DNA of 34,364 bases, taken from Rhodoluna sp. Its GTDB lineage: Bacteria; Actinomycetota; Actinomycetes; Actinomycetales; Microbacteriaceae. Below are positions 8,478 to 26,195 of this stretch, piece after piece. Each line of letters starts with the position of its first letter. The stretch's first letter is position 1. The stretch lies in the NCBI GenBank assembly GCA_044345455.1, contig JBIJBA010000001.1, positions 1 through 34,364 of the forward strand. The letters are read 5' to 3'. Made by a program: the position numbers and the translations under genes. A model generated the notes under the pieces. The model saw nothing but the letters and a program-made list of their open reading frames with translations, was not told where the DNA came from and did not search any database.

Positions 8478-10600
8478 TGAAACTTGATCACTTCTCTGAG
8501 CTGTGGTCAAATACCGATGAGGTAATCACTCATTCGTATGTTCAGGATGTAAAGCTTCCCTCCGGAAAAGTCCTTGCCCTTATCACTCTCGATAACAACA
8601 AAGACCACACCAGACCATCAACTCTTGGCCCGCTGACTCTAAAGGAATTTTCTGAGGCCCTCGAGGCTCAAGAGCAGCGCGCCAAAAAAGGTGAGATACA
8701 TGGTTTGGCTGTAACAGGCAAGCCATATTTCTTAGCGGCAGGGGCAGACCTTTCCAAAGTGGGTTCAATCCCATCAACTCGCGCCGGAAGACTCGTAGTT
8801 GAACTGGGCCACTTTGCACTTGGCAAACTAGGAAGTTTCCCAGTTCCAACTTTTGTGTTTATCAACGGTTTGGCTCTTGGTGGTGGACTAGAGATTGCGC
8901 TCAACGCTAACTACCGAACCGTAAACTCTGCAGCTCCTGCCATTGCACTGCCAGAAGTATTTCTTGGATTGCTTCCTGGTTGGGGCGGGGCTTATTTACT
9001 TCCAAACCTGATTGGCATTAGAAACGCACTCAAAGTTGTTATTGAGAATCCACTAAAGCAAAATCGCATGCTAAGCCCTCAAGATGCCCTCAAGCTCGGA
9101 ATTGCGGACGTGATGTTTGAACCTCAGAGATTCATCGAAGATTCGGTTGTTTGGGCTGACAAAGTTCTTTCAGGCAAGAAAGTATCTCGCCCAAACAAAC
9201 CAGGTCTTTTTGAACGCTTAGTTATCTGGGGACCCGCGGTTTCAATCGCTAGAAAAATGGTGAAGCAAAACATTGGCTCTGTTCCTCTTGCACCTTACGC
9301 TGCCCTCGATCTTCTAGGTGAAGCCAAGTTCAGCTCCAAGGAGCAGGGCTTCAAGCGTGAAGACGAAGAGCTAGAAAAGCTAATTGCTTCTGATCAGTTC
9401 CGGGCCAGTATCTATGCTTTTAACTTGGTTCAAAAGCACGCCAAAAACCCACAGGGTGCTCCGGATCCAAAACTGGCAATCAAAGTTCAGAAAGTTGGTG
9501 TCGTTGGTGCTGGTCTAATGGCCAGCCAGTTTGCACTTCTATTCCTGAGACGATTGCAGGTACCGGTAATAATCACCGATGTGTCACAGGACCGCGTTGA
9601 CAAAGGTCTGGCTTACTGCCGAGCAGAGCTAGACAAGCTCGTTGAAAAAGGGCGCCTGTCAGTTGATGACCGCAACCGTTACAGCGCAAATCTAAGTGGA
9701 ACGCTTGATTTGAATGACTTCGCAAACTGCGACTGGGTCATCGAAGCAGTATTTGAAGAGCTAAAGGTCAAACACGATGTCTTTACTCGCGTTGAAGCCG
9801 TGGTTAGACCAGATGCAATCTTGGCGACCAACACATCTTCTTTGTCGGTTGATGAAATCGGGAAAGTGCTTAAGAACCCTGAGCGTCTAGTTGGTTTTCA
9901 CTTCTTCAACCCGGTAGCCGTTATGCCACTTGTTGAAGTAGTAAAAGCCGCCAAGAGCAACGATGTCTCGGTAGCAACCGCGATGCGGGTTGCAAAGGAT
10001 CTGAAGAAAACTGCCGTGATCACCTCTGACAGCACAGGATTTGTTGTGAACAGGTTGCTTGGGTATTTACTTGGTGAGGCCATGAAGGCAGTTGACGAGG
10101 GCATTCCATTTGAAGAGGTGGCAGACGCTATCGCTCCGCTTGGTTTGCCGATGAACCCGTTTGATCTACTTGAGCTAGTTGGGCTGCAGGTTGGAGCCCA
10201 TGTTCTGGATTCGATGTATGGCTTTGCGCCAGATCGCTTCTACAAGACCGATTCGCTGCACCAGCTAGCTAAATTGGGCCGAATCAGAACTAAGGACTCT
10301 AAGGGCAACAAGACTGGCTACGACCCAGAGGCAATCAAGATTGTTTCTGGTCGCACCAGAACAAGAACTAAGAACCAGGTTTTTGATGACCTAATTGTTG
10401 GACTCACCAAAGAAATCAAGCTCATGCTTGACGAGAAGGTAGTTTCCAGCGCCGAGGATATTGATTTGTGCATGATCATGGGTGCCGCCTGGCCATTCCA
10501 CCTTGGTGGAATCACACCTTACCTAGATCGAATTGGTGCTTCTCAGAAAGTCTTTGGAGCTACTTTTCACAACCCACCAATTAGGGGAGTTCGTAGCTAG
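8477..10600 (+). CDS. fadB: Multifunctional enoyl-CoA hydratase / 3-hydroxyacyl-CoA dehydrogenase
   Basis: N-terminal crotonase domain (AAGADL, GGGLE, LPEVFLGLLPGWGG). C-terminal HAD domain (VVGAGLMA, IEAVFE, TNTSSL, GFHFFNP, GFVVNRL). Confidence 0.93.
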   Translation: MKLDHFSELWSNTDEVITHSYVQDVKLPSGKVLALITLDNNKDHTRPSTLGPLTLKEFSEALEAQEQRAKKGEIHGLAVTGKPYFLAAGADLSKVGSIPSTRAGRLVVELGHFALGKLGSFPVPTFVFINGLALGGGLEIALNANYRTVNSAAPAIALPEVFLGLLPGWGGAYLLPNLIGIRNALKVVIENPLKQNRMLSPQDALKLGIADVMFEPQRFIEDSVVWADKVLSGKKVSRPNKPGLFERLVIWGPAVSIARKMVKQNIGSVPLAPYAALDLLGEAKFSSKEQGFKREDEELEKLIASDQFRASIYAFNLVQKHAKNPQGAPDPKLAIKVQKVGVVGAGLMASQFALLFLRRLQVPVIITDVSQDRVDKGLAYCRAELDKLVEKGRLSVDDRNRYSANLSGTLDLNDFANCDWVIEAVFEELKVKHDVFTRVEAVVRPDAILATNTSSLSVDEIGKVLKNPERLVGFHFFNPVAVMPLVEVVKAAKSNDVSVATAMRVAKDLKKTAVITSDSTGFVVNRLLGYLLGEAMKAVDEGIPFEEVADAIAPLGLPMNPFDLLELVGLQVGAHVLDSMYGFAPDRFYKTDSLHQLAKLGRIRTKDSKGNKTGYDPEAIKIVSGRTRTRTKNQVFDDLIVGLTKEIKLMLDEKVVSSAEDIDLCMIMGAAWPFHLGGITPYLDRIGASQKVFGATFHNPPIRGVRS

Positions 10601-11796
10601 ATTTCAAATTTAGTTCTATAGCTTTGGATTAAAGGCCTCATACCTATTCCACAAACCCCAACCAACTCGCCTTCGCGATAGTACTCAAATACACATTCAC
10701 CGGAAATCTCTCCCGATACAAGCTTGCTCTCATCGGCAAGATACGTCATGCCAAAAGACAAGATGTTCATCTCATACTGATCCGACCAAAATGACGGGAG
10801 CGGCCCAAAGGGTTTGGCAATAACTTCTTTGGCGTTGTCACCTTCTTGAGATGCCACAATCACCTCGGCTGCGCGCTTTGCGGTTTCGCTTGGTAGGTTC
10901 CAGTGTTCGACACGCCTAGGGATCTCATCAAATAGTGAATTCGGGTATCTTGCAACGTCGCCAATAGCAAAAACATTTTGTAAAGCGTTCCCTGATTCTT
11001 CGATAGCTCGCATTGCAGAGTCCACCAAAACACCATCATCTATATCGATCCCTGAATCGATAAGCCATTCAGTATTGGCAATTGATCCAATAGCCACAAC
11101 CAATACATCAGTGTCATAAATTACACCGGAATCTAGAATTACTCTCTCCAAGACCCCATCACCTATAAGCCCAAACACGGACGCTCCGCTGACGAACTCC
11201 ACGCCTTTTTCGATGTGTCGCTTTTTTATCTCAGCTGAAAGTGTTTTTCCGAGAGCGTGCTCAATTGGTTCGCGGTGGCGCGAAACTACTCTTACCTCGC
11301 ACCCCTTCTTTATTGCCGTGGCAGCAACCTCACATCCGATGAATCCCGCACCCAGAATTAGAACTCTCGCACCTTCGGTTAGAACTCCTCGAAGGCTTAT
11401 TGCATCATCAATTGTTCTTAGAACGTGAATTCCCGAAATACCATTTGAGTCAACCGGCAACGGTTTCGGTCTAAGGCCTGTAGCAATTACCAAATAGGAG
11501 TAGGGATGTTTTGTGCCAGAAAGATCGGTTACAACTTGGGCCTTAGTATCCACACTTGAAGCGGCAGTATTTAGCACCCATTCAACATCCGAAATCGAAT
11601 CTTTAAGGGGGAACAAAACCTCATCAATGCCCGAATCAGTAGATAGCAAATCTTTAGAAAGTGGCGGGCGGTTATAGGGAAGATGAGGCTCGTCACCAAT
11701 AATCTTTATTGGCCCTAGATATTTATTTCGCCTTAGAGCCTCAGCGCATCTCAGACCAGCTAAAGATGCACCGACAATAACTACAGGCTCGCCCAA
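10597..11796 (-). CDS. NAD(P)H:ferredoxin reductase (putidaredoxin-reductase-like, FAD-dependent)
   Basis: IVGASLAG, PYNRPPLSK, IATG, LGAGFIGCE, FAIGDVA, RVEHW and PSFWSDQY. Directly downstream of a ferredoxin. TTG start. Confidence 0.92.
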   Translation of the reverse strand: MGEPVVIVGASLAGLRCAEALRRNKYLGPIKIIGDEPHLPYNRPPLSKDLLSTDSGIDEVLFPLKDSISDVEWVLNTAASSVDTKAQVVTDLSGTKHPYSYLVIATGLRPKPLPVDSNGISGIHVLRTIDDAISLRGVLTEGARVLILGAGFIGCEVAATAIKKGCEVRVVSRHREPIEHALGKTLSAEIKKRHIEKGVEFVSGASVFGLIGDGVLERVILDSGVIYDTDVLVVAIGSIANTEWLIDSGIDIDDGVLVDSAMRAIEESGNALQNVFAIGDVARYPNSLFDEIPRRVEHWNLPSETAKRAAEVIVASQEGDNAKEVIAKPFGPLPSFWSDQYEMNILSFGMTYLADESKLVSGEISGECVFEYYREGELVGVCGIGMRPLIQSYRTKFEI

Positions 11797-11797
11797 T

Positions 11798-11989
11798 TTA
11801 CGAAACTATGCGAATAGCCTGCATAGGGCAAATGTCTACAGCCGCTTCCACGTTGTCAAGCTCGGAATCTTCTACCTCGCCGACATACTCCAGTTTGTCT
11901 TCTTCGTTGAGCTTGAAAACCTTAGGAGCCTCAAAAACGCACTGTCCATAGTGCTGGCACTTAGTCATGTCAACTTCAACCTTGATCAT
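11798..11989 (-). CDS. Small single-cluster ferredoxin, probably [3Fe-4S], P450-partner type
   Basis: 63 aa, acidic, with CQHYGQC...AP.VF and a distal ICPMQAI motif. Confidence 0.9.
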   Translation of the reverse strand: MIKVEVDMTKCQHYGQCVFEAPKVFKLNEEDKLEYVGEVEDSELDNVEAAVDICPMQAIRIVS

Positions 11990-12864
11990 TTTTTCTCCTC
12001 GATTCTTGAAGGGTAAAGGTCTTTTGATGGTGTGCGTATCCCTCTGAACTCCCAGTCCCCGCCTAGAGCCGTGGAGACCACTTCTTCGCTTTCCGTTGGC
12101 TGAGCGCCAACATCTGATCGAATCGGTGCAGGGCCATGAACAATTAGGTTGCTGAGTCGACCAAGTCCTTCGACTTCGACGTCAACGACATCGCCTGGCT
12201 TTACTGGGCGAGAGTTTGCTGGTGTCCCTGTGAAGATCATGTCCCCCGGCACCAAAGTAATTGTTCTGGCAAGATCGGCAACGAGATAGTTCATATCCCA
12301 TTCCATGTTCTTGGTGTTGTCTTCTTGCTTTAGTTCACCATTTACATAGGTTCGAATGTATTTGTTACGGAAATCCCAGTCGGTGACCATACCAGGGCCA
12401 ACTGGCGCAAGAGTGTCTGCTCCCTTGACTCGGAGCATTGAGCCGGCATCAGTGTCTCTAAAGTCATGAAGGCCGTAATCATTGCCAACAGAGTAACCAG
12501 CTATGTACTCGGATGCCTCGTCGGGAGAAATGTTCTTGCAAGTCTTTCCAATAATGATAACTATCTCGCCTTCATAGTTCAGCCAGTTACAGCGCTCAGG
12601 TCTTACGACGTGTCCGTTATGGGAATTCAAGGCGGTGATTGGCTTATGGAAGTAAGTCGGAGCATCCGGCAGCTTGGTCATGAACTCGTCACTTCGAGAC
12701 CGGTAATTTAGGTGCACCGCAAGAATTTTGGTTGGCTCAGAAGGCGCCAAGTGAATCGCTTCAGCGATCTTCACTCTGCGGCCATCGGCAACCACAAGCT
12801 CCTCGCCTTCGCGAATAACTTGAACGGCTGCACCCTCGAGCAGAATCCTTCTAAATTCAGTCAC
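11986..12864 (-). CDS. Fumarylacetoacetate hydrolase family isomerase/decarboxylase (HpaG/HpcE-like)
   Basis: KILAVHLNY, YFHKP, NYEGE, GYSVGND, TLVPGDMIFTGTP and VEVEGLGRL. Start reassigned to GTG 12864, which overlaps the upstream stop; the ORF-track start at 12996 lies deep inside the dioxygenase gene. Confidence 0.88.
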   Translation of the reverse strand: MTEFRRILLEGAAVQVIREGEELVVADGRRVKIAEAIHLAPSEPTKILAVHLNYRSRSDEFMTKLPDAPTYFHKPITALNSHNGHVVRPERCNWLNYEGEIVIIIGKTCKNISPDEASEYIAGYSVGNDYGLHDFRDTDAGSMLRVKGADTLAPVGPGMVTDWDFRNKYIRTYVNGELKQEDNTKNMEWDMNYLVADLARTITLVPGDMIFTGTPANSRPVKPGDVVDVEVEGLGRLSNLIVHGPAPIRSDVGAQPTESEEVVSTALGGDWEFRGIRTPSKDLYPSRIEEKK

Positions 12865-13765
12865 GGGATAGAACCAGGTCCTTAGGTCTTGGGAAGCCGC
12901 CTTCAGGCTCAGGGAAGTAAACGTGAACCTGTCCTGTGCCAATGGAGTTTTCGTATTCGGAGTACATAACGCCCTTAGCGGTGTTATCGCCCTCACCGGT
13001 TGCGCCAGCCATAGTCAACCAATGGCTGAAGTTTGCCTCAGGCTTGAACTTTTTGAAATCATCCATGGTATCCAAGATTCGAGCATGGTCACCCTGCTTC
13101 ATCCATTCAATGCGCTCAAGATCGGCAAGACGCGCACCTTCCGAATAGATGTGGCTAGGGTCGGATGATTCGTGCTTACGAAGCTCACGAAGTTTGTAGA
13201 AAGTGTGGGAAAGCGCACCGGAAGCTAGCAGCAAAACCTTGCGATCGGTGTCGCGAATTGCTTCCCCAAGTGCCCGACCGGCACGCAGGAAATCCTCAGC
13301 TGTTGCGGTCTGGCATACAGAAATAGAAACCCACTTCTTGTCGAGTCCGCGACCCAGGTAGTGCCACAGGTTTACGGTTGCGTAAAAAATTGGAAGATGC
13401 GGATCACTAATTGGTGTAATCCAGGTTCCGTTCTTTTCATCGTATTTCGCAGCCGCCATGGCCAGTTCTGGGTCACCTTTGAATGCATAAGGAACCTGAG
13501 ACATACCTCGAGGTAGTTCCTCGGAGGTGAACAGTCCAGAGCGTTCCGCTTGAGCAGTTATGACAAATTCAACAGTGGTAGCCCAGTGACTGTCGAGTAC
13601 AACTACTGTGTCGTAATCCAAAGTCTCCATTACTTCTTTGCGAAACTTCTTTAGACCTGGCACCAAGCTAATCTCATTGCCATCATTTAGGTCATAGCGA
13701 ACTTTTTCGGGCAGCATGATCGTTGGTACGTGAGCCAAAATTGCAGCCCCAACTACTTTTCCCAT
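12857..13765 (-). CDS. hpaD: Class III (LigB-family) extradiol dioxygenase, 3,4-dihydroxyphenylacetate 2,3-dioxygenase-like
   Basis: MGKVVGAAILAHVP, VVLDSHW, LASGALSH and C-terminal ENSIGTGQ parallel the E. coli HpaD motifs. Flanked by HpaE-like and HpaG-like genes. Exact substrate not proven. Confidence 0.8.
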   Translation of the reverse strand: MGKVVGAAILAHVPTIMLPEKVRYDLNDGNEISLVPGLKKFRKEVMETLDYDTVVVLDSHWATTVEFVITAQAERSGLFTSEELPRGMSQVPYAFKGDPELAMAAAKYDEKNGTWITPISDPHLPIFYATVNLWHYLGRGLDKKWVSISVCQTATAEDFLRAGRALGEAIRDTDRKVLLLASGALSHTFYKLRELRKHESSDPSHIYSEGARLADLERIEWMKQGDHARILDTMDDFKKFKPEANFSHWLTMAGATGEGDNTAKGVMYSEYENSIGTGQVHVYFPEPEGGFPRPKDLVLSRD

Positions 13766-13768
13766 TTC

Positions 13769-15235
13769 TTATTCCTTCCATCCATTAGGTGAAATTACTG
13801 TGTTTTTTACATCTGCATAAAAATCAAAGGACCAATTGCCACCCTCGCGGCCGATTCCGGATTTCTTGGAGCCACCGAAAGGAGCTTTTAGGTCTCGAAC
13901 AAAGAAGCAGTTCACCCAAATGGTCCCAGCAACAACCTCATCAGCAATTCGTTTTGCGTGCTCACGATTACCGGAAACGATAACAGCGGCCAAGCCAAAT
14001 TCGGTGTTGTTTGCCATCTCAATCAACTGCTCGTCTGTTTTGAAAGTCTGCATCGTGAGGACTGGTCCAAATATTTCGGAAGTCACGATTTCAGAGCCTA
14101 GTGGAGGGTTAGAAATCAGTGTTGGTCGGAAAAACAACCCACCTAATTCACTGTTTGGCTCCCCACCCATAACGACCTTGAGCCCTTCCTTCTTGGCGCG
14201 GTCTACGAACCCCTTGATTCTTTCAAAATGAACAGGGTGGATTTGGGGTCCGATGTCGGTAGCAGGGTCTCTGGGGTCACCTTGTTTGAGAGCTGAGGCT
14301 TTTTCCTGAAATTTCTTAGAGAACTCCTCGGCCACCGATTCATGCACCAGCAATCTGGTTCCAGACAGACACACCTGGCCTGCATTATCGTATTGCTCGA
14401 TCGCTAGCGTCGCGGCAAGATCAAGATCTGCATCATGCATCACAATTGTTGGTGACTTACCCCCAAGCTCGAAAGAAACAGGTGTTAGGTTATCCGCGGC
14501 TGCGTGTGCAATCTTTTTGGCAGTGGGAACAGAGCCAGTAAATGAGATTCTTGAGATACCTGGGTGGGAAACCAGTGCGTTACCTACCTCAGCTCCAAGA
14601 CCTTGCACTACATTGAACACCCCAGCTGGAAAACCAGCTTTTACTGTTAGGTCTGCGAAGAATGAAGCAGACAGTGGTGTCCACTCCGCTGGCTTTAGAA
14701 CAACTGTGTCTCCAGCAGCTAATGCAGGACCAATTTTCCAGGTTGCAAGCATAAGCGGTGCATTCCAGGGTGTGATCAACACCGCAACACCGGAGGGGTC
14801 CCAGGAAATGTTGTTAGTATGTCCCCGAGTTTCCCAACTGTCATGATGCAGATCATTGATTGCCCAGTCGGCAAAGAATCGAAGGTTTAGAGCAACTCTT
14901 GGCATAACCCCACGAATGTGAGATCTAAGCAATGATCCGTTGTCTAGAGTTTCAAGATTCGCTAGTGGCTCAAGATTTTCTTCCACCAAATCAGCTAATC
15001 GGTGTAGTAGTTCACCGCGCTTTTTAGGTCCCATTTTTGACCACTCGGGGAAAGCACCTCGAGCTGCCACTACCGCTAAGTCAGCCTCGTGCTGCCCACC
15101 TCTAGAAATCTTTGCAAGCAAAGTGCCATCGATTGGAGAAAAATCATCCAGCGTATCGGAAGAAGCTATTCGCTTGCCACCGATGAAGTGACGGGTGTCT
15201 ACCGTAAGGCCCGCCAGCTGAACAGTTTCAGTCAC
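13769..15235 (-). CDS. hpaE: Hydroxymuconic semialdehyde dehydrogenase family (5-carboxymethyl-2-hydroxymuconate semialdehyde dehydrogenase-like)
   Basis: ITPWNAPLML, FTGS, ELGGKS, GQVCLSG, EIFGPV and the HMSD-type WVNCFFVRDL.APFGG.K.SGIGREGG..SFDFY. GTG start with AAGGGG SD. Confidence 0.82.
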   Translation of the reverse strand: MTETVQLAGLTVDTRHFIGGKRIASSDTLDDFSPIDGTLLAKISRGGQHEADLAVVAARGAFPEWSKMGPKKRGELLHRLADLVEENLEPLANLETLDNGSLLRSHIRGVMPRVALNLRFFADWAINDLHHDSWETRGHTNNISWDPSGVAVLITPWNAPLMLATWKIGPALAAGDTVVLKPAEWTPLSASFFADLTVKAGFPAGVFNVVQGLGAEVGNALVSHPGISRISFTGSVPTAKKIAHAAADNLTPVSFELGGKSPTIVMHDADLDLAATLAIEQYDNAGQVCLSGTRLLVHESVAEEFSKKFQEKASALKQGDPRDPATDIGPQIHPVHFERIKGFVDRAKKEGLKVVMGGEPNSELGGLFFRPTLISNPPLGSEIVTSEIFGPVLTMQTFKTDEQLIEMANNTEFGLAAVIVSGNREHAKRIADEVVAGTIWVNCFFVRDLKAPFGGSKKSGIGREGGNWSFDFYADVKNTVISPNGWKE

Positions 15236-15251
15236 AATTGCCCCTTTGCAA

Positions 15252-15271
15252 TTCGTTCGGATACTAACAAT
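15252..15271. promoter_or_regulatory. Candidate MarR operator, copy 1 (upstream of the hpaE operon)
   Basis: TTCGTT-CGGATACT-AACAAT, 17 nt upstream of the hpaE start; matches three other copies in the island. Confidence 0.7.
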
Positions 15272-15327
15272 ACAATAAACTACCCGCAGCCCTTAGGCCA
15301 ACAGCAATTTGTAACGATCCGGTGACT

Positions 15328-15828
15328 CTAGTCCTGGGACTCGGTAAAGGAAGTTATTTTCCTGAGCGCTATCGTCAATTCCCTTTTTTCAGCCTTGTTA
15401 AACCCACTCAGAACCTTCTGCTCGTGGGCGTTGAAATCGGGAAAAAGCTTCTTCATGAGATTTCTACCCTTTGGGGTCAAGGTAACAATCACCAATCGTT
15501 TATCCCCAGAACCAGGGTCTCTCTTGAGGTAACCCTTGCCTTCAAGGGTTTGCAATACACCCGTAAGGGTAGCCTTCGAAAAGCCACCTTCTTGAGCGAT
15601 AACCCTTGTTTCTATGGGCTCCCAAATCCATGACACCCAAAGCACAACAAAGCCAGTCCAGGAAAGCCCATGAGGAGCAAGTACAGTCCTCTCCAAGTAG
15701 TTCCTAGTGGCATTGGCAGCGCGGAAGATGTTACTTACTGCAGCCATGGAGTCAAAGTCCAAGGTCATGCCCGAGAGCTTGTTTTCGACCTGCCGCTCCG
15801 TCTCATTGAGGGTGTGAGCTCCAGACAT
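15328..15828 (-). CDS. MarR family transcriptional regulator
   Basis: LAPHGLSW, helix SKATLTGVLQTLEGKGYLKR and wing DKRLVIVTLTPKG. ATG 15828 with a GGAG SD. Confidence 0.93.
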   Translation of the reverse strand: MSGAHTLNETERQVENKLSGMTLDFDSMAAVSNIFRAANATRNYLERTVLAPHGLSWTGFVVLWVSWIWEPIETRVIAQEGGFSKATLTGVLQTLEGKGYLKRDPGSGDKRLVIVTLTPKGRNLMKKLFPDFNAHEQKVLSGFNKAEKRELTIALRKITSFTESQD

Positions 15829-15939
15829 CAAATTCTCCGCATCGTTATTACCTATCTAGCTACGACAATAGCCGAGCAAGAGAAAGTTTTGCTCGTTACT
15901 TTTGGGTAATTTGTTTCAAAAGCTCAGCGCAATGTGTAG

Positions 15940-15959
15940 ATTATTAGCGTCCAAACAAT
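15940..15959. promoter_or_regulatory. Candidate MarR operator, copy 2 (marR/P450 divergent region)
   Basis: ATTATT-AGCGTCCA-AACAAT, overlapping a -10-like TAGATT at 15937-15942. Confidence 0.6.
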
Positions 15960-15982
15960 CTCTACTGAGAGTGAGCTCAACG

Positions 15983-17218
15983 ATGAGTTATAACTTTGCC
16001 GACCTTGATCTTTTCTCCAAAGGTGCCCCATGGGATGCGTTTGCTGATGTGAGGGCTACCGGAAAGCCACACTTTTCTGAAGAGGCTGCTCCCAACCATG
16101 GGTTTTGGTCAATCATGCGATACAACGACATTGTCAAAGTTTTGCGTGACTCCGAAACATTTACTTCAGAGCGATTCACAAACCTTGAAGAAGTTGACGC
16201 TGAACAAGAACAAGCTCGACGATCACTTCTTGAAACCGATGGACTTCGCCACCGTGCTCTAAGAAGAATGCTCCAAGGTGAATTCACTCCACAAGCGGTA
16301 AGTAAGTACGAGTCATTTCTAAGGGGACTAACTGCAACAACACTCGATAATGCATTTGCCAAAGGCGAATTTGATTTCGTGGAAGATGTCAGCGCAGACT
16401 TCCCAATCCGAGTCCTGGCTCGAATACTAGACGTTCCGGATGAAGACACTGGTCAACTAATTGACTGGGGAAACCGAATGATTGGTAACACCGACCCTGA
16501 GCACGCAGACGTATTAATGGAGGATCCAGAGTCGGAAAAGTATCGACTCGTTCCATTTAGGTCACCTGCCGCACTAGAGGTTTTCGCATACGGCCAGGCG
16601 CTAGCCGCTGAGCGTAGAGGCAAGGGTCGAAAAGATCTGGTTTCAGTTTTGGCAGATGGAGTTCCATCAGATGGCATTCCAATGTCTGAACGAGACTTCA
16701 ACACAAACTTCTTACTCTTGGTTGTTGCTGGAAACGAAACCACTCGCCACACGATTTCTCACACAATGAACAATCTGATAAAGAATCCAGATCAGCTTGC
16801 ATTACTTCAGGAGAAACCAGAATTGATTCCTTGGGCAGTCGAAGAATTCCTCAGGTTTGCGTCACCGGTTTATCACTTCCGCAGGACAACCACCAAGGAT
16901 GTTGAGATCAACGGTGTGAAAATCAAGGAGGGCCAGAAGGTACTACCTTGGTTTGCATCGGGAAACAGAGACTCAGAGATATTCTCTGACCCTAACAAGA
17001 TGGATGTCACCAGAAACCCAAATGAGCACATGACCTTTGGTCGCGGCGGACCTCACATGTGCCTTGGCAATGCTCTGGCACGAATCGAAATGCGGATTAT
17101 GTTTGAGGACCTAATTTCCAGAATTGACCGCGTGGAGTTAACTGGAGAAATTGATTACCTGAGATCAAACTTTGTGCACGGGATAAAGAGAATGCCGGTC
17201 AGGGTACATCTCAGATAA
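15983..17218 (+). CDS. Cytochrome P450
   Basis: I-helix VAGNETT, K-helix EEFLR, SGNRD and heme motif FGRGGPHMCLG. Start reassigned to ATG 15983 (411 aa). Confidence 0.96.
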   Translation: MSYNFADLDLFSKGAPWDAFADVRATGKPHFSEEAAPNHGFWSIMRYNDIVKVLRDSETFTSERFTNLEEVDAEQEQARRSLLETDGLRHRALRRMLQGEFTPQAVSKYESFLRGLTATTLDNAFAKGEFDFVEDVSADFPIRVLARILDVPDEDTGQLIDWGNRMIGNTDPEHADVLMEDPESEKYRLVPFRSPAALEVFAYGQALAAERRGKGRKDLVSVLADGVPSDGIPMSERDFNTNFLLLVVAGNETTRHTISHTMNNLIKNPDQLALLQEKPELIPWAVEEFLRFASPVYHFRRTTTKDVEINGVKIKEGQKVLPWFASGNRDSEIFSDPNKMDVTRNPNEHMTFGRGGPHMCLGNALARIEMRIMFEDLISRIDRVELTGEIDYLRSNFVHGIKRMPVRVHLR

Positions 17219-17918
17219 GCTTGGCAACTTTCGAAAGAAAGTTATCAACTAATTCAAATGTCCTTTGTTTAGCAGCCTCGTTTTCGGCGATTGTCTGCCT
17301 CATCATGACACTTGGGTCTTGGCCATCCTCTTCGACTTTTTTTGCTCCACCCCAGTCAAGCCAACCTTTTAGGCCAGCGGAATCGAGTTCCGGGTGAAAT
17401 TGGACGCCTAAAGTTTTATTCACAACAAAAGCTTGTGAGGAAACAGGGTTGCGTGCAATTTCTTTGACGCCGGCTGGCAGCAACCATTGGTCGTAGTGAA
17501 ATTGGAACCATGGACCGTTTGAAACAAGCCCGGGTTCTTCAGACCAAATGTAGGTCCAGCCGATTTCTGGCTTAGGTGCCCTAGTAACGGAGCCGCCAAG
17601 TGCTCTTGCAACCAGCTGTCCACCAAAGCAAATCCCTAGAACAGGCTTGTTCGACTCAACGGCATTTTTGATCCACGCCAACTCTGGTTGCAGCCAGTTA
17701 CCAATACAGGCGTCATCCCAAGCGCCCCAGGGCGCCCCAAGGGGAATTATCAGGTCGTAATTATCTATGTCTGGAAACTCGAAGGCAACGTTGGGGTTTT
17801 CAAAGCTGTCCTCAGGCACTACAAGCTGAGTCTCTATCTCAAAGCCATGTTGGGCCAGTCTCTCACCAACAGGTCCAATAGGGCTGACGTGATCGTGCTG
17901 AATGAATAGCGCCTTCAA
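17211..17918 (-). CDS. Class I glutamine amidotransferase-like protein, probable gamma-glutamyl amide hydrolase
   Basis: VLGICFGGQ nucleophile elbow and GVQFHPE complete the Cys-His-Glu triad. Stand-alone domain divergent from a GS-like gene. Confidence 0.88.
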   Translation of the reverse strand: MKALFIQHDHVSPIGPVGERLAQHGFEIETQLVVPEDSFENPNVAFEFPDIDNYDLIIPLGAPWGAWDDACIGNWLQPELAWIKNAVESNKPVLGICFGGQLVARALGGSVTRAPKPEIGWTYIWSEEPGLVSNGPWFQFHYDQWLLPAGVKEIARNPVSSQAFVVNKTLGVQFHPELDSAGLKGWLDWGGAKKVEEDGQDPSVMMRQTIAENEAAKQRTFELVDNFLSKVAKLI

Positions 17919-17983
17919 AATCAGACTCCCAAAAATAACGTTGAATTAAATGCTTCCGACTTTATGCTGGATGGCTCTAGTAT

Positions 17984-18003
17984 CTCATTAGATACCTAAC
18001 GAT
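17984..18003. promoter_or_regulatory. Candidate MarR operator, copy 3 (GATase/GS-like divergent region)
   Basis: CTCATT-AGATACCT-AACGAT, immediately downstream of a -10-like TAGTAT at 17978-17983. Confidence 0.65.
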
Positions 18004-18038
18004 TCAATCAAATAGTCATTGCCACAAAGGAGTATCAA

Positions 18039-19391
18039 ATGAGTAAGTCACTGGAGCAGCTTCAGAAAGAACTCAAAGTCGCCAACATCGATGTACTGAG
18101 GGTTGTGTACCTGGACATCATCGGATTAGTCCGAGCCAAGGACATATTGGTTTCCCAACTGGACCAGATTTCCCACGGTGGCCCAGCTTTCTGTCAGGGT
18201 ATCTGGGTTACCACAACAGGTGGTGATGTTTTAGATGCGCAAAACATAATTACTGACGGACTGCAAGACTTCATTTCTCAGATTGTTCCAGAATCTTGGC
18301 GAGAGCTTCCTTGGGAACCAGGCGTGGCTTATGTGGTCGCGGGAGCAAATAATCCGGACGGATCAAAGAACCTTTTGTCACCGAGAAACATCCTCGAACT
18401 CATGGTCCAGAAATATAAAGATCTCGGGCTCAACCCCATCGTCGGTCCGGAACTGGAGTTCTACATCGCGGAGAAGGATGAAAACGGCAAATACAAAAGA
18501 GCTATTGAGCGAACAGGTCAGGCTTACACCACAGGTTCTGTGACTGATCCTAAGGGGACCTTCCTGCACCTGCTGAGAATGCTTGACCAGATGAACATCG
18601 GAATCTTTGCTGGTAATCACGAATTCAGTCCAAGCCAATATGAAATTAACTTCTGGCACGGCCCAGCTCTTGACGCAGCAGATAGAACACTTCTGATGAA
18701 GACCACAATCAAAGAAGTCGTTGCTCGAGCCGGTCAGCATGCGACCTTCTGCGGTAAGCCTTGGAGCGATGAAGGTGGCAGCGGATTCCACCTGCACTTC
18801 TCAGTCGAAGACCTAAAGGGCAAGAACGTCATGCACGATGGCGGTGAGCACTTGAGCGCTGTTGGCAAGAACATGATTGCGGGTATCTTAAAACACGCTC
18901 ACGCCCTGACTGCAATTTGCAACCCAACAATCAATGCGTTCAAGCGCCTGGGTCCAGACACATTGGCTCCCTATCGGGCCAACTGGGGACTCGACAACCG
19001 TTCAGCATTGATTCGAATCCCGCCTGAGCGAGGATCTGGAACCAGGCTTGAAGTAAGAGTTGCCGATGGTGCCGCAAATCCCTATTTGATGACAGCTGCA
19101 ATTCTGGCTGCTGGTCTTGATGGAATTCTGAACAAGCTAGAAGCACCTGAGCCAGTTGTAGGTATGTCTTACGATAACGAGTCAGCACCAGTTCTTCCGA
19201 TGAGCCTGGAAGAAGCGCTTGATGCTTTGCAGAAAGATACTGTCCTAAGAGACATACTTCAAGGGCCAATTGTCGAAGTGTTTGATGTTCTAAAGCGAGA
19301 CGAAGTTCGTCGCTATAAAGAGGCCGTATCAGACCCAAACACCCGAGAGACTACCGATTGGGAAGTCAAAGAGTACATGTCTGATTTCTAA
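18039..19391 (+). CDS. Glutamine synthetase-like protein, probable gamma-glutamyl-amine ligase
   Basis: GPELEFY, HE...SQYEIN, GSGFHLHFS, NAFKRL, NRSALIRIP and RLEVR..DGAANPYL. Lacks the FDGSS motif and has PDTLAP in place of the PGYEAP flap of true GS. Confidence 0.9.
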   Translation: MSKSLEQLQKELKVANIDVLRVVYLDIIGLVRAKDILVSQLDQISHGGPAFCQGIWVTTTGGDVLDAQNIITDGLQDFISQIVPESWRELPWEPGVAYVVAGANNPDGSKNLLSPRNILELMVQKYKDLGLNPIVGPELEFYIAEKDENGKYKRAIERTGQAYTTGSVTDPKGTFLHLLRMLDQMNIGIFAGNHEFSPSQYEINFWHGPALDAADRTLLMKTTIKEVVARAGQHATFCGKPWSDEGGSGFHLHFSVEDLKGKNVMHDGGEHLSAVGKNMIAGILKHAHALTAICNPTINAFKRLGPDTLAPYRANWGLDNRSALIRIPPERGSGTRLEVRVADGAANPYLMTAAILAAGLDGILNKLEAPEPVVGMSYDNESAPVLPMSLEEALDALQKDTVLRDILQGPIVEVFDVLKRDEVRRYKEAVSDPNTRETTDWEVKEYMSDF

Positions 19392-19401
19392 AGCAAAAGC
19401 T

Positions 19402-20214
19402 TTATACGGTTGGATCAGAAAAGTCTGCTACTAAGTTTCCGCCTGCGAAAGTGACTCCAAGTTCGCGGTAGTAACCACCAAGGATTTTCTGAACTGGAAG
19501 AATTGAACCTAGTTCATCCCATTCAGAATCACCAAGAACTAGTTCAGCATCGCCGCTCCAGGTGACACCAATCTCAGCATCGCTTGAACCAAGAGAAACT
19601 AGTTGATCCAAAGAGTTTCCTTTTCCAGGAGTAATTGACGGCATCCAGCGGCTATGAAGCATCTTGTGACCGTTGACAAAACCGTTGCTGTCAGACTCCT
19701 GTCTCAAAGTAACAATCGCGCTCGCTAGTCTGTGGTCGTAGGCAGCAACGCTAGCTCCAAGTTTTGCGCCAGGCTCGAGTCTTGGTGTTGCCTTGCCGTT
19801 ATTGAAAACTCTAGTGACAGCGATGTTTCCAAGTTTTTTAGGGTAACCCTGGAACCAACCTCTGGCAATCGCAAAGTCTTTCGTGACCCAGATTGCAACA
19901 CAACGAGAATAAGTAACCTCCTGGTACTTGCAACGAATTACAACAAAAGTTTCTAGATACTGTGATCGCACTGGATCTAACAGTTCAGCCTTTGAAGTTG
20001 AACAGGACTGCCAATCAGCCCAAATGATTGCAACTGCACCGGGTTGCTCGTCTGCTATCTCGACGCCTTCTGGAAGAAGAGCGGCAACATTTTTCGGGTC
20101 GGTTAGGTACTCGACGGTAAGTAGGGTGCCCGAGTACAGCCAAGGCATCTCGGGAATAATGGCACTTTTTCCACTTGGGGTTTTGGGTGCTAGAAAACCT
20201 TTTAGTTCACTCAT
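19402..20214 (-). CDS. Acetoacetate decarboxylase-like superfamily protein (MppR/Sbi00515-type)
   Basis: PWLYSG, DWQS, DPVRSQY.E and the Schiff-base Lys motif ARGWFQGYPKKLG. ATG 20214 lies 7 nt after a -10-like TACCCT, suggesting a leaderless transcript; GTG 20220 is the alternative start. Confidence 0.88.
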   Translation of the reverse strand: MSELKGFLAPKTPSGKSAIIPEMPWLYSGTLLTVEYLTDPKNVAALLPEGVEIADEQPGAVAIIWADWQSCSTSKAELLDPVRSQYLETFVVIRCKYQEVTYSRCVAIWVTKDFAIARGWFQGYPKKLGNIAVTRVFNNGKATPRLEPGAKLGASVAAYDHRLASAIVTLRQESDSNGFVNGHKMLHSRWMPSITPGKGNSLDQLVSLGSSDAEIGVTWSGDAELVLGDSEWDELGSILPVQKILGGYYRELGVTFAGGNLVADFSDPTV

Positions 20215-20328
20215 GGACACTAGGGTACAGAGTCATTCGGGCACAAACGAGCCATTTTTACAATTTTTCGACAAAATTTGTAGGACTTAGAACTTGACCA
20301 AAGTCCCGATTAGGGCAAGATTAGTCAT

Positions 20329-20348
20329 ATCGTTTTGATACGAACGAT
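20329..20348. promoter_or_regulatory. Candidate MarR operator, copy 4 (upstream of the permease)
   Basis: Perfect arms ATCGTT-TTGATACG-AACGAT, just downstream of the promoter-like pair TTGACC(20294)-N17-AAGATT(20317). Confidence 0.72.
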
Positions 20349-20380
20349 TCACCATTCAATGAGGAAGGGGGCCATAACAA

Positions 20381-21868
20381 ATGGCCAAAGGATCAAACAA
20401 GTCCCTCAGCAAGGGGCGACTCGGTGTCGTTGGCATCGTTTTTTTTGTAGTCGCAGCTAGCGCTCCACTGGTCGGTATGACCGGTGCTGTGCCAGTAGCG
20501 ATGCTTCTAGGAAACGGCGCTGCAACACCGGGTGCCTATCTAGCAGTAGGACTAACACTTTTAGTCTTCTCAGTCGGTTATGCAGCTATGAGCAGCAAGG
20601 TAACTAATGCTGGAGCATTTTTTGCTTTTGTTGGAAAAGGACTCGGGCCTAAAGCCGGAGTTGCATCTGCCTATGCATCGATTATTGGGTACGTCACAAT
20701 TCAATTAGCTATTTATGGCTTCTTTGGTTTGGTGATTTCACTCACTGCAGCCGGATTTGGCCTCAGCCTCCCCTGGTGGGCATGGGCACTTATCGCTTGG
20801 GTTGTCGTAACGCTACTTTCGCTACTAAGTGTTGATATTGGAGCAAAAGTCCTAGGTGTTCTTCTGAGCGTCGAGCTACTTGCACTAATCATCACTGCGG
20901 TTGCAATTTTGGTAAACGGTGGACCAGAACCAATGGATATCAACGCTTCGTTTAACCCAGCGCTGGTGTTTGCTGGTGGTTTTGCAGGAACCGCGGGAAT
21001 CGCACTAGCGTTCGCTTTTGCATCCTTTATCGGTTTCGAAGCAACAGCAATTTACGGTGAGGAATCTAAAGATCCAAAGCGTGACGTTCCAAGAGCAACC
21101 TATTGGGCTATTGGAATCATTGCAGCACTATTCGCAGTAGTTTCATTTGCAATGGTGGTTGGTATGGGAAGCAGCCAGTTGATAGATCAGGTTGTTGAGC
21201 GCTCATCTGTCCTAGCGGATCCAGCCGCAGTCCTATTCAGCCTCGCGGCAGAATATGTCTCGCCAGAGATCGTGACAATCATGGCCCTGTTGGTTGTGAC
21301 GAGCCTGTTTGCTGGATTGCTTGCATTCCAGAACGCGGCAGCTCGTTACTTCTTTGCCATGGGTAGAGGTGGCGTTATGCCTTCTATGCTGGGCGAGACA
21401 AACAAGGTTGGTGCTCCACAAAACGGTGCACTTCTAACCTCCATAATTGCGGGTGCGGTAATTGTGCTCTTTGCAGCTGCAGGACTAGACCCATTCCTTA
21501 ACTTGTTCAGCTGGATGAGCGGTATCGCCGTTATTGCAGTTGTTGCGGTTGAGGTATTGGTCTCGATTGCTGTAATTGCTTACTTCAATAAAGCAGGCGG
21601 AGGAACTCTTTGGAATTCAAAGATTGCTCCTGCCGCATCAGTTGTTTTGATGCTTGCTGGTTTGTACCTACTAATGTCTAGGTTCAACTTGCTAGCCGGA
21701 ACATCTGCTGATGGGGTAGACCCATCGCTACCTGAATCAGCCTGGGCTCTCTCTGGCCTTGGTTGGTTCTTTGTACTGCTTCCATTCCTAGCGATGATCG
21801 TTGGGTATGTTGTTGCAGGAACCAGAAAAAACAAGAACGATGCCCTAGTTCGGGACTTCGCTTCTTAG
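20381..21868 (+). CDS. APC-superfamily amino acid / amine permease
   Basis: About 12 hydrophobic segments, with VAASAPL, NAGAFFAFV.KGLG, SFIGFEATAIYGEESKDP and ARYFFAMGR.G. Confidence 0.93.
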   Translation: MAKGSNKSLSKGRLGVVGIVFFVVAASAPLVGMTGAVPVAMLLGNGAATPGAYLAVGLTLLVFSVGYAAMSSKVTNAGAFFAFVGKGLGPKAGVASAYASIIGYVTIQLAIYGFFGLVISLTAAGFGLSLPWWAWALIAWVVVTLLSLLSVDIGAKVLGVLLSVELLALIITAVAILVNGGPEPMDINASFNPALVFAGGFAGTAGIALAFAFASFIGFEATAIYGEESKDPKRDVPRATYWAIGIIAALFAVVSFAMVVGMGSSQLIDQVVERSSVLADPAAVLFSLAAEYVSPEIVTIMALLVVTSLFAGLLAFQNAAARYFFAMGRGGVMPSMLGETNKVGAPQNGALLTSIIAGAVIVLFAAAGLDPFLNLFSWMSGIAVIAVVAVEVLVSIAVIAYFNKAGGGTLWNSKIAPAASVVLMLAGLYLLMSRFNLLAGTSADGVDPSLPESAWALSGLGWFFVLLPFLAMIVGYVVAGTRKNKNDALVRDFAS

Positions 21869-21886
21869 GAAAGCACTCATTGGGTT

Positions 21887-21915
21887 AGGTGGCCAAGGAA
21901 TATCCTTGGCCACCT
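21887..21915 (+). terminator. Strong 13-bp hairpin after the permease (U-less terminator or mRNA-stabilising stem)
   Basis: AGGTGGCCAAGGA-ATA-TCCTTGGCCACCT is a perfect inverted repeat starting 19 nt after the stop. No U-tract follows on either strand. Confidence 0.6.
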
Positions 21916-21940
21916 CCCCCTGGAAAAAAAGGCGATCATC

Positions 21941-22189
21941 ATGGATCAAGACTTCGATATCGATGTGACCTTCGAAGAGAGCGCTAACGAAAGCCTCATT
22001 GCCAGTCTCAGTAAAGCGGACCTAAAGAAAAAATGTGACTCCTTACCGCATGAATTGGTTGAAGCGGCAACGGCAATTTTGGTGGATAAGAGAACTTATT
22101 CAGATGTCTCACAAGCGCTAGGAATTCGCCAGCCAGAACTGGTGCGCGCCATACATCGTGCCAAGTTGATCATTTCTGGAGATAAATAG
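21941..22189 (+). CDS. Small protein resembling an isolated sigma-70 region 4 helix-turn-helix domain
   Basis: LPHELVEAATAILVDKRTYSDVSQALGIRQPELVRAIHRAK matches the LP...Y.E(I/V)A..LG(I)...V...(I/L)HRA pattern of ECF sigma region 4. Fills the gap between co-oriented genes and has an AAGG SD. Confidence 0.68.
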   Translation: MDQDFDIDVTFEESANESLIASLSKADLKKKCDSLPHELVEAATAILVDKRTYSDVSQALGIRQPELVRAIHRAKLIISGDK

Positions 22190-22192
22190 AGC

Positions 22193-23551
22193 TTGAGTTA
22201 CACGCTAATAAACCCATCAACCGAAGAGTCAATGGAAACCATTGAGCACCTCGATGTTGGCCAAACGGACGAAGCGATAAATAAAGCGGTAAAAGCTCAG
22301 GAGAAGTGGGCGGCTCTTGCGCCAAGCGATCGTGCAACGTTGCTCAGGAGATTTGCTCTGGCAGTTGATGCCGACAACGAAAACCTAGCCCAGCTAGAGG
22401 TTAGAAATTCTGGGCACCCAATCGACCAAGCACGGTACGAGGCCAATAACGTTCGAGACGTTTTGCATTATTACGCCGGAGCCCCTGAGAGGCTCATTGG
22501 TAAACAAATCCCGGTCGCAGGGGGGATTGCAGTTACATTCCATGAGCCAATAGGCGTTGTGGGAATGATTACCCCTTGGAACTATCCAATGCCCATCGCA
22601 GGCTGGGGGATGGCACCAGCTCTTGCGGCGGGTAATGCCGTGGTTCTAAAGCCTGCTGAGTGGACACCACTTACTTCAATCCGCTTAGCCGAGCTAGCAC
22701 TAGAAGCAGGATTACCAGAGAACTTATTTCAGGTGCTTAACGGAAAAGGAACTGTTGTTGGAGATCGCCTAGTCACCAACGAAAAAGTAGGGAAAATTGT
22801 TTTCACTGGTTCCACGGCAGTTGGAAAACACATCATGCGCGGTGCCGCCGATCAAATCAAACGCGTAACTCTAGAACTCGGTGGCAAAAGCGCCAACATT
22901 ATCTTTGAAGATTCCGATATCGAGAAGGCCGCAAGAAGTGCCCCCTACGCGGTCTTTGAAAATGCCGGTCAGGACTGCTGCGCACGTTCAAGAATTTTGG
23001 TGCAAAAATCTGTATTCGAAAAATTTATGGAAGCCTTAGAACCAGTAGTAAAGGCGGTCAAGGTCGGTGACCCTTCCCTAAGCGGGACTGAGGTTGGTCC
23101 TTTGGTGAGTAAACAACACCGCGAAAATGTGAGCAGTTTTCTAGAAGGTGCTGATGTTGCGTTTCGAGGAAGTGCCCCCACTGGCAAAGGTTTTTGGTTT
23201 GCTCCAACAGTCGTGCTCGCTAAGAGCCCAACGGATAAATGCATGGCGGAAGAGATTTTTGGGCCGGTGGTTACTGTTTACCCTTTCGAAACAGAACAGG
23301 AAGCTATTGAGCTGGCAAATGGAACAGAGTACGGTCTTTCTGGATCGATTTGGACTCGCGATTTAGGTCGGGGAATTCGGGTTTCGAGGGAAGTTCAAAG
23401 CGGCAACCTTTCAGTGAACTCTCATTCATCTCTTAGGTACCACACCCCATTCGGGGGAATGAAGCAGTCAGGCATGGGACGCGAGCTAGGCCCAGATGCC
23501 CCGCTTCACTTCACTGAAGAAAAGGTTGTTTTCTTCAATCAAGATAACTAG
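22193..23551 (+). CDS. Aldehyde dehydrogenase, AldC (Rv2858c)-like
   Basis: LINPSTEE, LEVRNSGHPI, PERLIGKQIPVAGG, ELGGKS, NAGQDCCARSR and GNLSVNSHSS. From recall, it closely follows the ALDH encoded near actinobacterial glnA4. Confidence 0.9.
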   Translation: MSYTLINPSTEESMETIEHLDVGQTDEAINKAVKAQEKWAALAPSDRATLLRRFALAVDADNENLAQLEVRNSGHPIDQARYEANNVRDVLHYYAGAPERLIGKQIPVAGGIAVTFHEPIGVVGMITPWNYPMPIAGWGMAPALAAGNAVVLKPAEWTPLTSIRLAELALEAGLPENLFQVLNGKGTVVGDRLVTNEKVGKIVFTGSTAVGKHIMRGAADQIKRVTLELGGKSANIIFEDSDIEKAARSAPYAVFENAGQDCCARSRILVQKSVFEKFMEALEPVVKAVKVGDPSLSGTEVGPLVSKQHRENVSSFLEGADVAFRGSAPTGKGFWFAPTVVLAKSPTDKCMAEEIFGPVVTVYPFETEQEAIELANGTEYGLSGSIWTRDLGRGIRVSREVQSGNLSVNSHSSLRYHTPFGGMKQSGMGRELGPDAPLHFTEEKVVFFNQDN

Positions 23552-24432: not shown

Positions 24433-24448
24433 TTCCGCTCCAATCCAG

Positions 24449-24516: not shown

Positions 24517-24526
24517 GAGGAACCAA

Positions 24527-26191: not shown

Positions 26192-26195
26192 CTAA

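Follow-up and report, generated by a model that had tools for sequence, protein, structure and literature searches.

A gene block of Rhodoluna sp. conserved across Actinomycetota, with a predicted gamma-glutamyl route for tyramine- or dopamine-type amines

The stretch of 34,364 nucleotides at the start of contig JBIJBA010000001.1 of Rhodoluna sp. (assembly GCA_044345455.1), hereafter the window, carries at 10597-23551 a block of genes with a P450, a glutamine synthetase (GS)-like ligase and enzymes of aromatic ring cleavage. The 11 enzyme, transport and regulator genes named in a preliminary description of this DNA are intact open reading frames (ORFs), each with its expected Pfam family over the cut-off, and the Hpa-like trio among them scores below the NCBIfam equivalog cut-offs (table 1). 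The genes of that inventory stood, but an ADC/MppR-family gene, an 82-aa ORF and five operator sites had been missed. The block is a conserved gene set of the Actinomycetota, likely co-regulated and catabolic. With somewhat more confidence than doubt, we read it as a pathway in which a tyramine- or dopamine-type arylethylamine would be degraded with its nitrogen kept, the side chain leaving as 4-aminobutyrate (GABA), after ring hydroxylation by the P450.

Table 1. Genes and other features of the block at 10597-23551, with their occurrence among the 66 loci compared
Feature	Position	Strand	Evidence	Loci
Ferredoxin reductase, likely P450 electron donor	10597..11796	-	Pyr_redox_2 over cut-off, Reductase_C weak	35/66
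Single-cluster ferredoxin	11798..11989	-	Fer4_15/Fer4_13	36/66
FAH-family, HpaG-C-terminal-like, predicted decarboxylase/isomerase	11986..12864	-	TIGR02303 208 bits (cut-off 276)	50/66
LigB-family Fe(II) extradiol dioxygenase, subfamily apart from HpaD	12857..13765	-	TIGR02298 133 bits (cut-off 316)	54/66
HpaE-like ring-fission semialdehyde dehydrogenase (predicted)	13769..15235	-	best family TIGR02299, 494 bits (cut-off 638)	60/66
Operator site 5' of ring-cleavage operon	15253..15270		23.0 bits, leave-out matrix	
MarR-family regulator, likely operator binder	15328..15831	-	PF01047	55/66
Operator site, marR/P450 intergenic	15941..15958		16.4 bits, leave-out matrix	
Cytochrome P450, predicted ring hydroxylase	15983..17218	+	start ATG 15983; uncharacterised family near CYP125/CYP124	
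Class I glutamine amidotransferase (GATase)-like, predicted gamma-glutamyl hydrolase	17211..17918	-	PF00117; PDB 7d54 E 8e-56	51/66
Operator site, GATase/GS-like ligase intergenic	17985..18002		17.2 bits, leave-out matrix	
GS-like ligase, predicted gamma-glutamyl-amine ligase	18039..19391	+	residue conservation in 58/58 ORFs	64/66
ADC/MppR-family Schiff-base enzyme, predicted hydratase-aldolase	19402..20220	-	PF06314; MppR 4jm3 E 9e-46	60/66
Operator site 5' of ADC gene	20233..20250		22.8 bits	
Operator site 5' of permease	20330..20347		19.3 bits	
APC amino-acid/amine permease	20381..21868	+	PF00324	an APC in 47/66
Perfect hairpin 3' of permease, possible terminator or RNA stabiliser	21890..21912			
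82-aa ORF, sigma-70 region 4-like features, accessory	21941..22189	+	ESM Atlas neighbours PF04545/PF08281 at 0.94-0.95	
AldC-type aldehyde dehydrogenase, predicted (gamma-glutamyl-)aminoaldehyde dehydrogenase	22193..23551	+	lineage-specific addition	9/10 closest

As had been claimed before, the scanned ORFs of the window (30 against NCBIfam, 29 against Pfam) yielded no amine oxidase or aminotransferase, and neither a Rieske oxygenase nor HpaBC. The assembly comprises 870 kb and is 70% complete, so that absences in it mean little. The FAH-family gene likely starts at the GTG at 12864, judged by start context, the ORF finder running to 12996. The 82-aa ORF had no match in the Pfam scan and occurs in 20/66 loci, every one in Rhodoluna-like freshwater groups. 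A scan for sigma-70 promoters and terminators performed no better than chance. Contigs of four freshwater RNA libraries span most of the block, and no inference on transcription or co-transcription is drawn from them.

The P450 was found in 24 of 400 sampled genomes of the class (E<=1e-125), that is, about 6% of the Actinomycetes sample, and, within the host genus, in 17 of the 36 genomes sampled. Its closest named records (94-100% identical) are mostly labeled Rhodoluna. In the same 400-genome draw, the dioxygenase (E<=1e-60) occurs in 25 genomes which include all 24 P450 carriers, the cluster of the 25th being interrupted by a contig end. Gene content was compared in 66 loci (window included), selected by their P450 and with duplicates merged; many are cut by contig ends and some belong to near-identical species. 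Their flanks came from 17/19 relatives, 17/17 named-record loci, 12/36 non-self hits, 20 further hits of the class draw, and two plasmid records. Genes of the set recur together in these loci, the co-occurrence that the preliminary description had proposed to look for. In addition to the genes of table 1, a PuuD-like C26 hydrolase is present in 41 loci, a pyridoxal phosphate (PLP) decarboxylase in 23, and VanA/B-like genes in nine, while at least one gamma-glutamyl hydrolase of any kind is found in 56/66. Block proteins are 44-80% identical across genera. The arrangement is not a product of chance, because it recurs across genera, and since the gene order is shuffled between them, selection for the gene set, and not inherited synteny alone, is indicated.

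Versions of the cluster are also located on plasmids. The P450 and the dioxygenase of the Novosphingobium version are 39% and 57% identical to those of the window, respectively. This cluster (L140, Novosphingobium EMRT-2 plasmid, 5408-24543) adjoins genes for a CocE/NonD hydrolase, a carboxylesterase, a tannase/feruloyl esterase, and a TonB receptor, which, speculatively, might free tyramine from plant hydroxycinnamoyl amides. Plasmid pSLUN1 of Streptomyces lunaelactis (L141, 2591-17255) carries the ligase, the ring-cleavage genes, PuuC/PuuD-like genes, a tyrosine-decarboxylase-like gene, and five operator sites. No P450 orthologue was found on this plasmid, the chromosome of S. lunaelactis not having been searched; a P450-less cluster is expected if the P450 merely makes the catechol. 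Genome G576 was dropped as a P450-less carrier, as its cluster ends at a contig edge. On a plasmid of Sphingobium TomTYG64 (L154, 5567-16784), a dioxygenase with 37% identity belongs to a different cluster that has no ligase and encodes an aminotransferase and hydroxyacid dehydrogenases; it may serve the catabolism of DOPA or dihydroxyphenyllactate. The cultured carriers are Streptomyces canus, S. lunaelactis, Embleya, and Novosphingobium EMRT-2, which make the proposed route directly testable.

Co-regulation is suggested by a palindrome, TCGTTNG-N4-CNAACGA, derived from 77 promoter regions. The final matrix was retrained on 58 promoter regions of relatives at most 80% identical, the window itself and its near relatives being left out. 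With this leave-out matrix, the window sites at 15253, 15941, 17985, 20233, and 20330 are the top five of the assembly (870 kb), scoring 16.4-23.0 bits against 13.6 for the next best, and they serve every promoter of the alternating layout but that of orf82/AldC. First-order Markov controls also yield 0-4 sites of at least 15 bits per genome length, and therefore the support for the motif lies in the position of the sites and not in their count. The MarR-family protein presumably binds the motif and would keep all promoters repressed as long as neither the substrate nor an intermediate is present. Locus L103 has neither a MarR gene nor operator sites. A weak operator-like site of the window (295-312, 13.6-14.4 bits), 5' of a methyltransferase ORF (356-1180), could be a chance match.

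The ligase falls below two equivalog cut-offs, with 266 bits for GlnA TIGR00653 (cut-off 429) and 252 for PuuA (cut-off 650). The metal, ATP, and glutamate residues E138, E140, E195, E202, H251, R303, R321, R326, E338, and R340 are invariant in 58/58 ORFs, whereas the canonical ammonium-site Asp is replaced by Gln or Arg, and the flap Glu by Leu in 57/58. A GS fold that retains its ATP, metal, and glutamate residues but has a changed amine pocket is the pattern of the organic-amine ligases (GoaS; PMC11335346). The predicted activity of the window's protein would thus fit GS-like gamma-glutamyl organic-amine ligases and not canonical GlnA. The GATase shows a C97-H175-E177 triad, read from its sequence. 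No PuuD-like gene is found in the window, and the window's clade has lost its native C26 gene. Elsewhere in the window's genome (L123, G000 contig C47, 1670-7975), APC, GS-like, C26 hydrolase, AldC paralogue, and SDR genes lie together with the gene of a GATase that shares 69% identity with that of the window. The ligase of this second glutamylation cluster is 27% identical to that of the window, and no operator was found in it.

A GS-like ligase beside a GATase could also signify an aniline-type substrate, an arylamine that would be glutamylated in the manner of the Atd/Tdn/Npa systems, hydroxylated in the ortho position by the P450, and ring-cleaved as a 2-aminophenol. The pair is the entry of Atd/Npa, and the dioxygenase fold also fits 2-aminophenol 1,6-dioxygenases (TM 0.76-0.80). 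However, HpaD is the closer match for the dioxygenase, neither an alpha subunit nor an aminomuconate deaminase was seen, and the permease, the decarboxylases, and the GABA genes would be left unexplained. Nor does the ligase resemble 8wwu (NpaA1; 169 bits) more closely than ordinary GS (209 bits). An aniline-type substrate is hence very improbable.

The P450 belongs to an uncharacterised family near CYP125/CYP124 and not to CYP125 itself. In detail, the closest solved structure is an ancestral CYP125 (44% identity, TM 0.89), and the 44% applies solely to this reconstructed ancestor, the natural CYP125/CYP124 being 31-32% identical. The heme Cys is invariant in 24/24 aligned P450s, as is the E-T pair of the I-helix. 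No sterol genes were found among the recurrent neighbors of the P450 loci. The predicted structures of the P450 (pLDDT 89.3) and the dioxygenase (86.7) confirm the folds, not the substrates. The P450 is considered the catechol maker because it is the sole oxygenase available and because cleavage of the HpaD type needs two adjacent hydroxyls, as required by a characterised HpaD (PMC5291488).

A catechol could alternatively be unmasked by O-demethylation, the substrate being methoxylated or of the benzylamine type (3-methoxytyramine, vanillylamine) and its side chain leading to GABA or beta-alanine. CYP125 and CYP124 oxidise aliphatic methyl groups and not rings; this chemistry would suit a demethylase and keeps such a reading alive. 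VanA-like Rieske genes are found in 9/66 loci, L103 has a methylmalonate semialdehyde dehydrogenase (MMSDH) and an aminotransferase beside a PuuC-like gene, and in S. canus the cluster is extended by purU, folD, and genes for a GcvT-like protein and another P450. On the other hand, C1 genes lie near five clusters only (purU in three stretches and folD in five, two of them from one genome), the purU clusters carry a different P450, and the linked decarboxylases point to ethylamines. As to VanA/VanB, they occur only where the ferredoxin and reductase are missing (9/9), so VanB may feed the P450. On balance, a demethylated substrate is unlikely.

The VanB-like reductase and VanA-like Rieske oxygenase genes (L032, L033, L116-L122) lie mostly directly behind the P450. 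They were rejected as proof of a methoxy substrate, as VanB may be the P450 reductase in these nine loci. Two P450 paralogues (61-62%, 46-50%) are located within one cluster in L109, L110, L111, and L114, and with such pairs the route might also take in unhydroxylated phenethylamine. In one genome (G654:C1:333-1559), the P450 orthologue has an in-frame TAG within the match.

In the dioxygenase, H12, H60, E243, Y128, and H187 are invariant and match the residues of PaDHPAO. The protein is 29-33% identical to three annotated HpaD, with the 2-His-1-Glu Fe site and the second-sphere Tyr/His kept, and its best fold match is 8iq8 (TM 0.83, 26% identity). Residues tried as substrate markers, namely His-Arg versus His-Thr and a YEN motif, were discarded as they fail to split amine clusters from others. 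The ADC protein shares with MppR 4jm3 the Schiff-base Lys128 in a QGYPK motif. Its score for MppR TIGR04460 is 175 bits (cut-off 380), the fold and the Schiff-base Lys alone being in common, and the enduracididine context was not found; it is therefore probably not MppR proper. ADC-related proteins split unsaturated 2-oxo acids, the products being pyruvate and an aldehyde. By analogy with this activity, the protein would stand in for HpaH and HpaI. Among five carrier genomes, HpaB, CHMI, and HpaH over the cut-off were each found in none (0/5), and an HpaI-like gene is near 1/66 loci.

The likely product of ring cleavage is suggested by the second aldehyde dehydrogenases (ALDHs) of the relatives. 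Four of the 16 pass the cut-off for aminobutyraldehyde dehydrogenase, nine score best as PuuC (below the cut-off), two as succinic semialdehyde dehydrogenase (SSADH), and one as MMSDH, whereas none of the 16 scores best as StyD (phenylacetaldehyde dehydrogenase). One of the four, in L022, was dropped because its surroundings are those of an ordinary polyamine locus, similar to the one of G000 C17. The PuuC- and PuuD-like genes of the relatives are below the cut-off, with PuuC scores of 521-588 bits (cut-off 850). In G478, a 23.2-bit operator precedes genes for an aminobutyraldehyde dehydrogenase, gabT (over the cut-off), and a GATase, adjoining the P450. Operators of at least 14 bits lie 5' of 5/12 PuuC-like and 25/44 PuuD-like genes, six further PuuD-like genes are directly 3' of a PuuC-like gene, and in five Rhodoluna-group loci the aminobutyraldehyde dehydrogenase gene is the last of the ring-cleavage operon. 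The acox entries and the SSADH entry of L050 in this operator survey arose from slicing and were disregarded.

The window's own AldC has no operator and occurs in 9/10 of the closest loci and 0/56 others. It is 74% identical to the ALDH of the GS/C26/ALDH/SDR cluster on contig C47, scores below the NCBIfam cut-off, and is a recent copy from that other cluster of the same genome. In a close relative (L045), a C26-AldC pair was gained together. SCO1612, of the like-ordered S. coelicolor cluster, is a predicted gamma-glutamyl-aldehyde dehydrogenase (PMC6529630). Three ALDH lineages in one slot therefore all point to an aliphatic amino-aldehyde. The preliminary description had the amine removed first and an ALDH leading to a dihydroxyphenylacetate, which does not agree with second ALDHs of the aminobutyraldehyde dehydrogenase/PuuC kind, never StyD, and with a clade-restricted, operator-less AldC.

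It had offered two reactions for the P450, and ring hydroxylation is the one preferred here. In the other, the P450 would hydroxylate the N-adjacent carbon of gamma-glutamyl-dopamine, releasing glutamine and an aryl-acetaldehyde, which an ALDH would oxidise to 3,4-dihydroxyphenylacetic acid (DOPAC) for ring cleavage. This would account for the missing amine oxidase and suits the aliphatic hydroxylation of the P450 kin, and the actinobacterial PipA/MorA P450s are described as hydroxylating N-heterocycles. Nevertheless, the gamma-glutamyl hydrolases kept in most loci would become redundant, no ring hydroxylase would be left (no HpaB in the five carriers), the ALDHs are of the wrong kind, and the P450-less plasmid version retains the remaining genes. 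Hydroxylation beside the nitrogen is accordingly quite improbable.

A further alternative limits the cap to the P450 step: dopamine would be uncapped and then lose its amino group to a transaminase or oxidase encoded elsewhere, and DOPAC would follow a classical-type route to succinic semialdehyde. The order of cap, P450, and uncapping is that of Ipu, carrier genomes encode class III aminotransferases, and SSADH-type genes are near 3/66 loci, in one case with an operator. No conserved deaminating enzyme is found in the cluster, though, the SSADH fits a GABA route equally, and the operator-linked PuuC/PuuD-like and aminobutyraldehyde dehydrogenase-gabT genes would be left unexplained, which makes this rather improbable. 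In the five carrier genomes, gabT was found in all and a Cu amine oxidase in none (0/5). From nine matches to flavin "amine oxidase", six are CrtI, HpnE, or HemY and three have no NCBIfam name.

The linked group II PLP decarboxylases come from several lineages (28-37% alike). The loop Tyr/Phe is an amine-versus-aldehyde switch, and the catalytic-loop Tyr is kept in 22/22 aligned decarboxylases. Their best PDB match is 4obu, presumably a tryptophan decarboxylase, with DOPA, glutamate, and diaminobutyrate decarboxylases close behind. A linked decarboxylase in a catechol-cleaving pathway points to Tyr/DOPA, and therefore to tyramine/dopamine. The window's clade has the decarboxylase in 0/10 loci, three close relatives having no more than a 29-30% homologue, and would rely on amine uptake. 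In one actinobacterial family (L105:18137-19681; L104, L106, L107, L143), a 515-aa protein is encoded next after the reductase/decarboxylase. No Pfam, NCBIfam, or Atlas family was found for it, and a 33% homologue is encoded in the window's genome (G000, contig C73).

From the genes, their catalytic residues, the synteny, and the motif, we infer a substrate, a P450 regiochemistry, an order of steps, and a point of uncapping. The permease would import the amine, or in many relatives the PLP decarboxylase would make it from Tyr/DOPA; the GS-like ligase would cap it as a gamma-glutamyl amide, and the P450 with its ferredoxin and reductase would add the second ring hydroxyl. The dioxygenase, the HpaE-like dehydrogenase, the FAH decarboxylase, and the ADC hydratase-aldolase would then run homoprotocatechuate-type chemistry (meta-cleavage, decarboxylation, and retro-aldol) to pyruvate and (gamma-glutamyl-)4-aminobutanal, the latter in place of succinic semialdehyde owing to the aminoethyl side chain. 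Finally, the aldehyde would be oxidised by an aminobutyraldehyde dehydrogenase or a PuuC-like one, and with a gamma-glutamyl hydrolase this would give glutamate and GABA, the latter passing to gabT/gabD. In a stricter version, the cap is kept through P450 hydroxylation, extradiol cleavage, decarboxylation, and retro-aldol, and gamma-glutamyl-4-aminobutanal joins Puu without an amine oxidase; this is tentative, doubt slightly outweighing confidence. The cap would then block the cyclisation of the amine onto catechol and semialdehyde intermediates. The prediction made before, of a tyramine/dopamine-like amine that is glutamylated, P450-oxidised, and meta-cleaved, is strengthened by the conserved set and the shared operator. 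No description of the cluster or of gamma-glutamyl-tyramine/dopamine catabolism was found in the full-text literature searched, most subscription journals being outside its coverage.

The route would combine known enzyme families in a new order. To our knowledge, known bacterial tyramine/dopamine routes take the nitrogen off first. For instance, the tyramine/dopamine catabolon of Pseudomonas putida U, attributed to Arcos in 2010, reportedly passes via 3,4-dihydroxyphenylacetic acid with oxidative deamination first and no glutamylation; the substrates proposed here and the type of ring cleavage are the same. In Atd/Tdn, a Rieske dioxygenase removes the tagged nitrogen and gives catechol. The window has a P450 and no Rieske dioxygenase, its nitrogen would be on the side chain, and the Rieske genes of nine relatives are VanA-like; GS-like glutamylation of an aromatic amine before oxygenation and meta-cleavage is the trait shared with the aniline and 1-naphthylamine systems Atd/Tdn/Npa (PMC11335346).

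The hpa/hpc systems of E. coli and A. baumannii share a LigB-type dioxygenase with the same five catalytic residues, an HpaE-like dehydrogenase, an FAH decarboxylase, and a MarR, and the end products of their homoprotocatechuate route are pyruvate and succinic semialdehyde (PMC12718150). The window's homologues are all below the family cut-offs and stand together with a P450 and a glutamyl ligase, an ADC/MppR-family gene is found instead of HpaBC, CHMI, HpaH, and HpaI, and the predicted product is an amino-aldehyde. The Ipu systems of Pseudomonas sp. KIE171 and of two clusters of Paenarthrobacter aurescens TC1 (PMC6776027) have the permease, the GS-like ligase, the P450 with its ferredoxin and reductase, and a hydrolase of the amidotransferase type, for a gamma-glutamylated amine, in agreement with the logic recognised in the preliminary description; they hydroxylate a small alkyl group and cleave no ring. 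No Paenarthrobacter record is among the 21 plasmid matches of the ligase at E<=1e-50. With E. coli Puu and Pseudomonas Pau, in which gamma-Glu-aminobutyraldehyde is the Puu intermediate (PMC10606097), the predicted route would share this compound, a PuuC-like dehydrogenase, a PuuD-like hydrolase, GABA, and gabT. On the contrary, no PuuB-like gene was seen in the window, the aldehyde would be a product of the ring-cleavage and retro-aldol steps, and the ligase is far below the PuuA cut-off. Lastly, AldC resembles the ALDH of a cluster in the window's genome ordered like the GlnA4 ethanolamine cluster SCO1610-1615 of S. coelicolor (PMC6529630), which has no P450 and no ring cleavage; the ligase of the like-ordered cluster is the distant one on contig C47.

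Several points weigh against the pathway as proposed. Its support comes from sequence analysis, and the solved P450 kin are methyl oxidisers. A PuuD-like gene and a decarboxylase are missing from the window. The decarboxylases pass no NCBIfam cut-off, their best score being for diaminobutyrate decarboxylase, and a PLP decarboxylase is also located behind a classical hpaD in Ruegeria THAF33. Efficient decarboxylation in A. baumannii needs a second subunit and is accelerated by CHMI (PMC12718150), and both are absent here. A second ALDH or gabT is found in just 28/66 loci, many being cut by contig ends; the PuuC scores are under the cut-off with the StyD scores of the same proteins close behind, and the second ALDH of the Novosphingobium plasmid is not best as PuuC. 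Unnamed proteins of the flavin-oxidase family (two in G676, one in G009) are encoded in carriers, where class III aminotransferases are common. There are also two hydrolases per cluster, so that uncapping may precede ring cleavage; the nitrogen would still end in GABA, and the idea of a protecting group would be weakened.

If the pathway is as proposed, it would be a second tyramine/dopamine route of different logic, in 24/400 Actinomycetes and 17/36 host-genus genomes sampled, by which an aromatic amine would serve streamlined lake bacteria as a source of carbon and nitrogen. Reactions would be assigned to four orphan subfamilies (P450, ligase, dioxygenase, and ADC). The fully capped version would further imply a new tyramine 3-hydroxylase P450 family and an amine-catechol dioxygenase subfamily, kept even in freshwater genomes of 1.2-1.6 Mb. 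A bacterial P450 which 3-hydroxylates capped tyramine could serve catecholamine production.

In the respective surroundings of the block, histidine utilisation genes (hutG-like on the - strand, hutU, hutI, and hutH; 23548-28861) adjoin AldC in the closest clade only and are likely unrelated to the block, as they have no operator of the regulon. On the other side, an ordinary beta-oxidation operon (crotonase, acyl-CoA oxidase, thiolase, and FadB) is located at 4379-10600, the stops of FadB and the reductase overlapping convergently. An SbtA-type Na+-dependent bicarbonate transporter and a PII-like (SbtB-like) partner are encoded at 1233-2500, in a heterotroph. The last genes of the window, at 28904-34321, are ppiA, a rhomboid gene, crgA, trpG/pabA, and two Ser/Thr kinase genes, a set which is the usual actinobacterial block near the origin.

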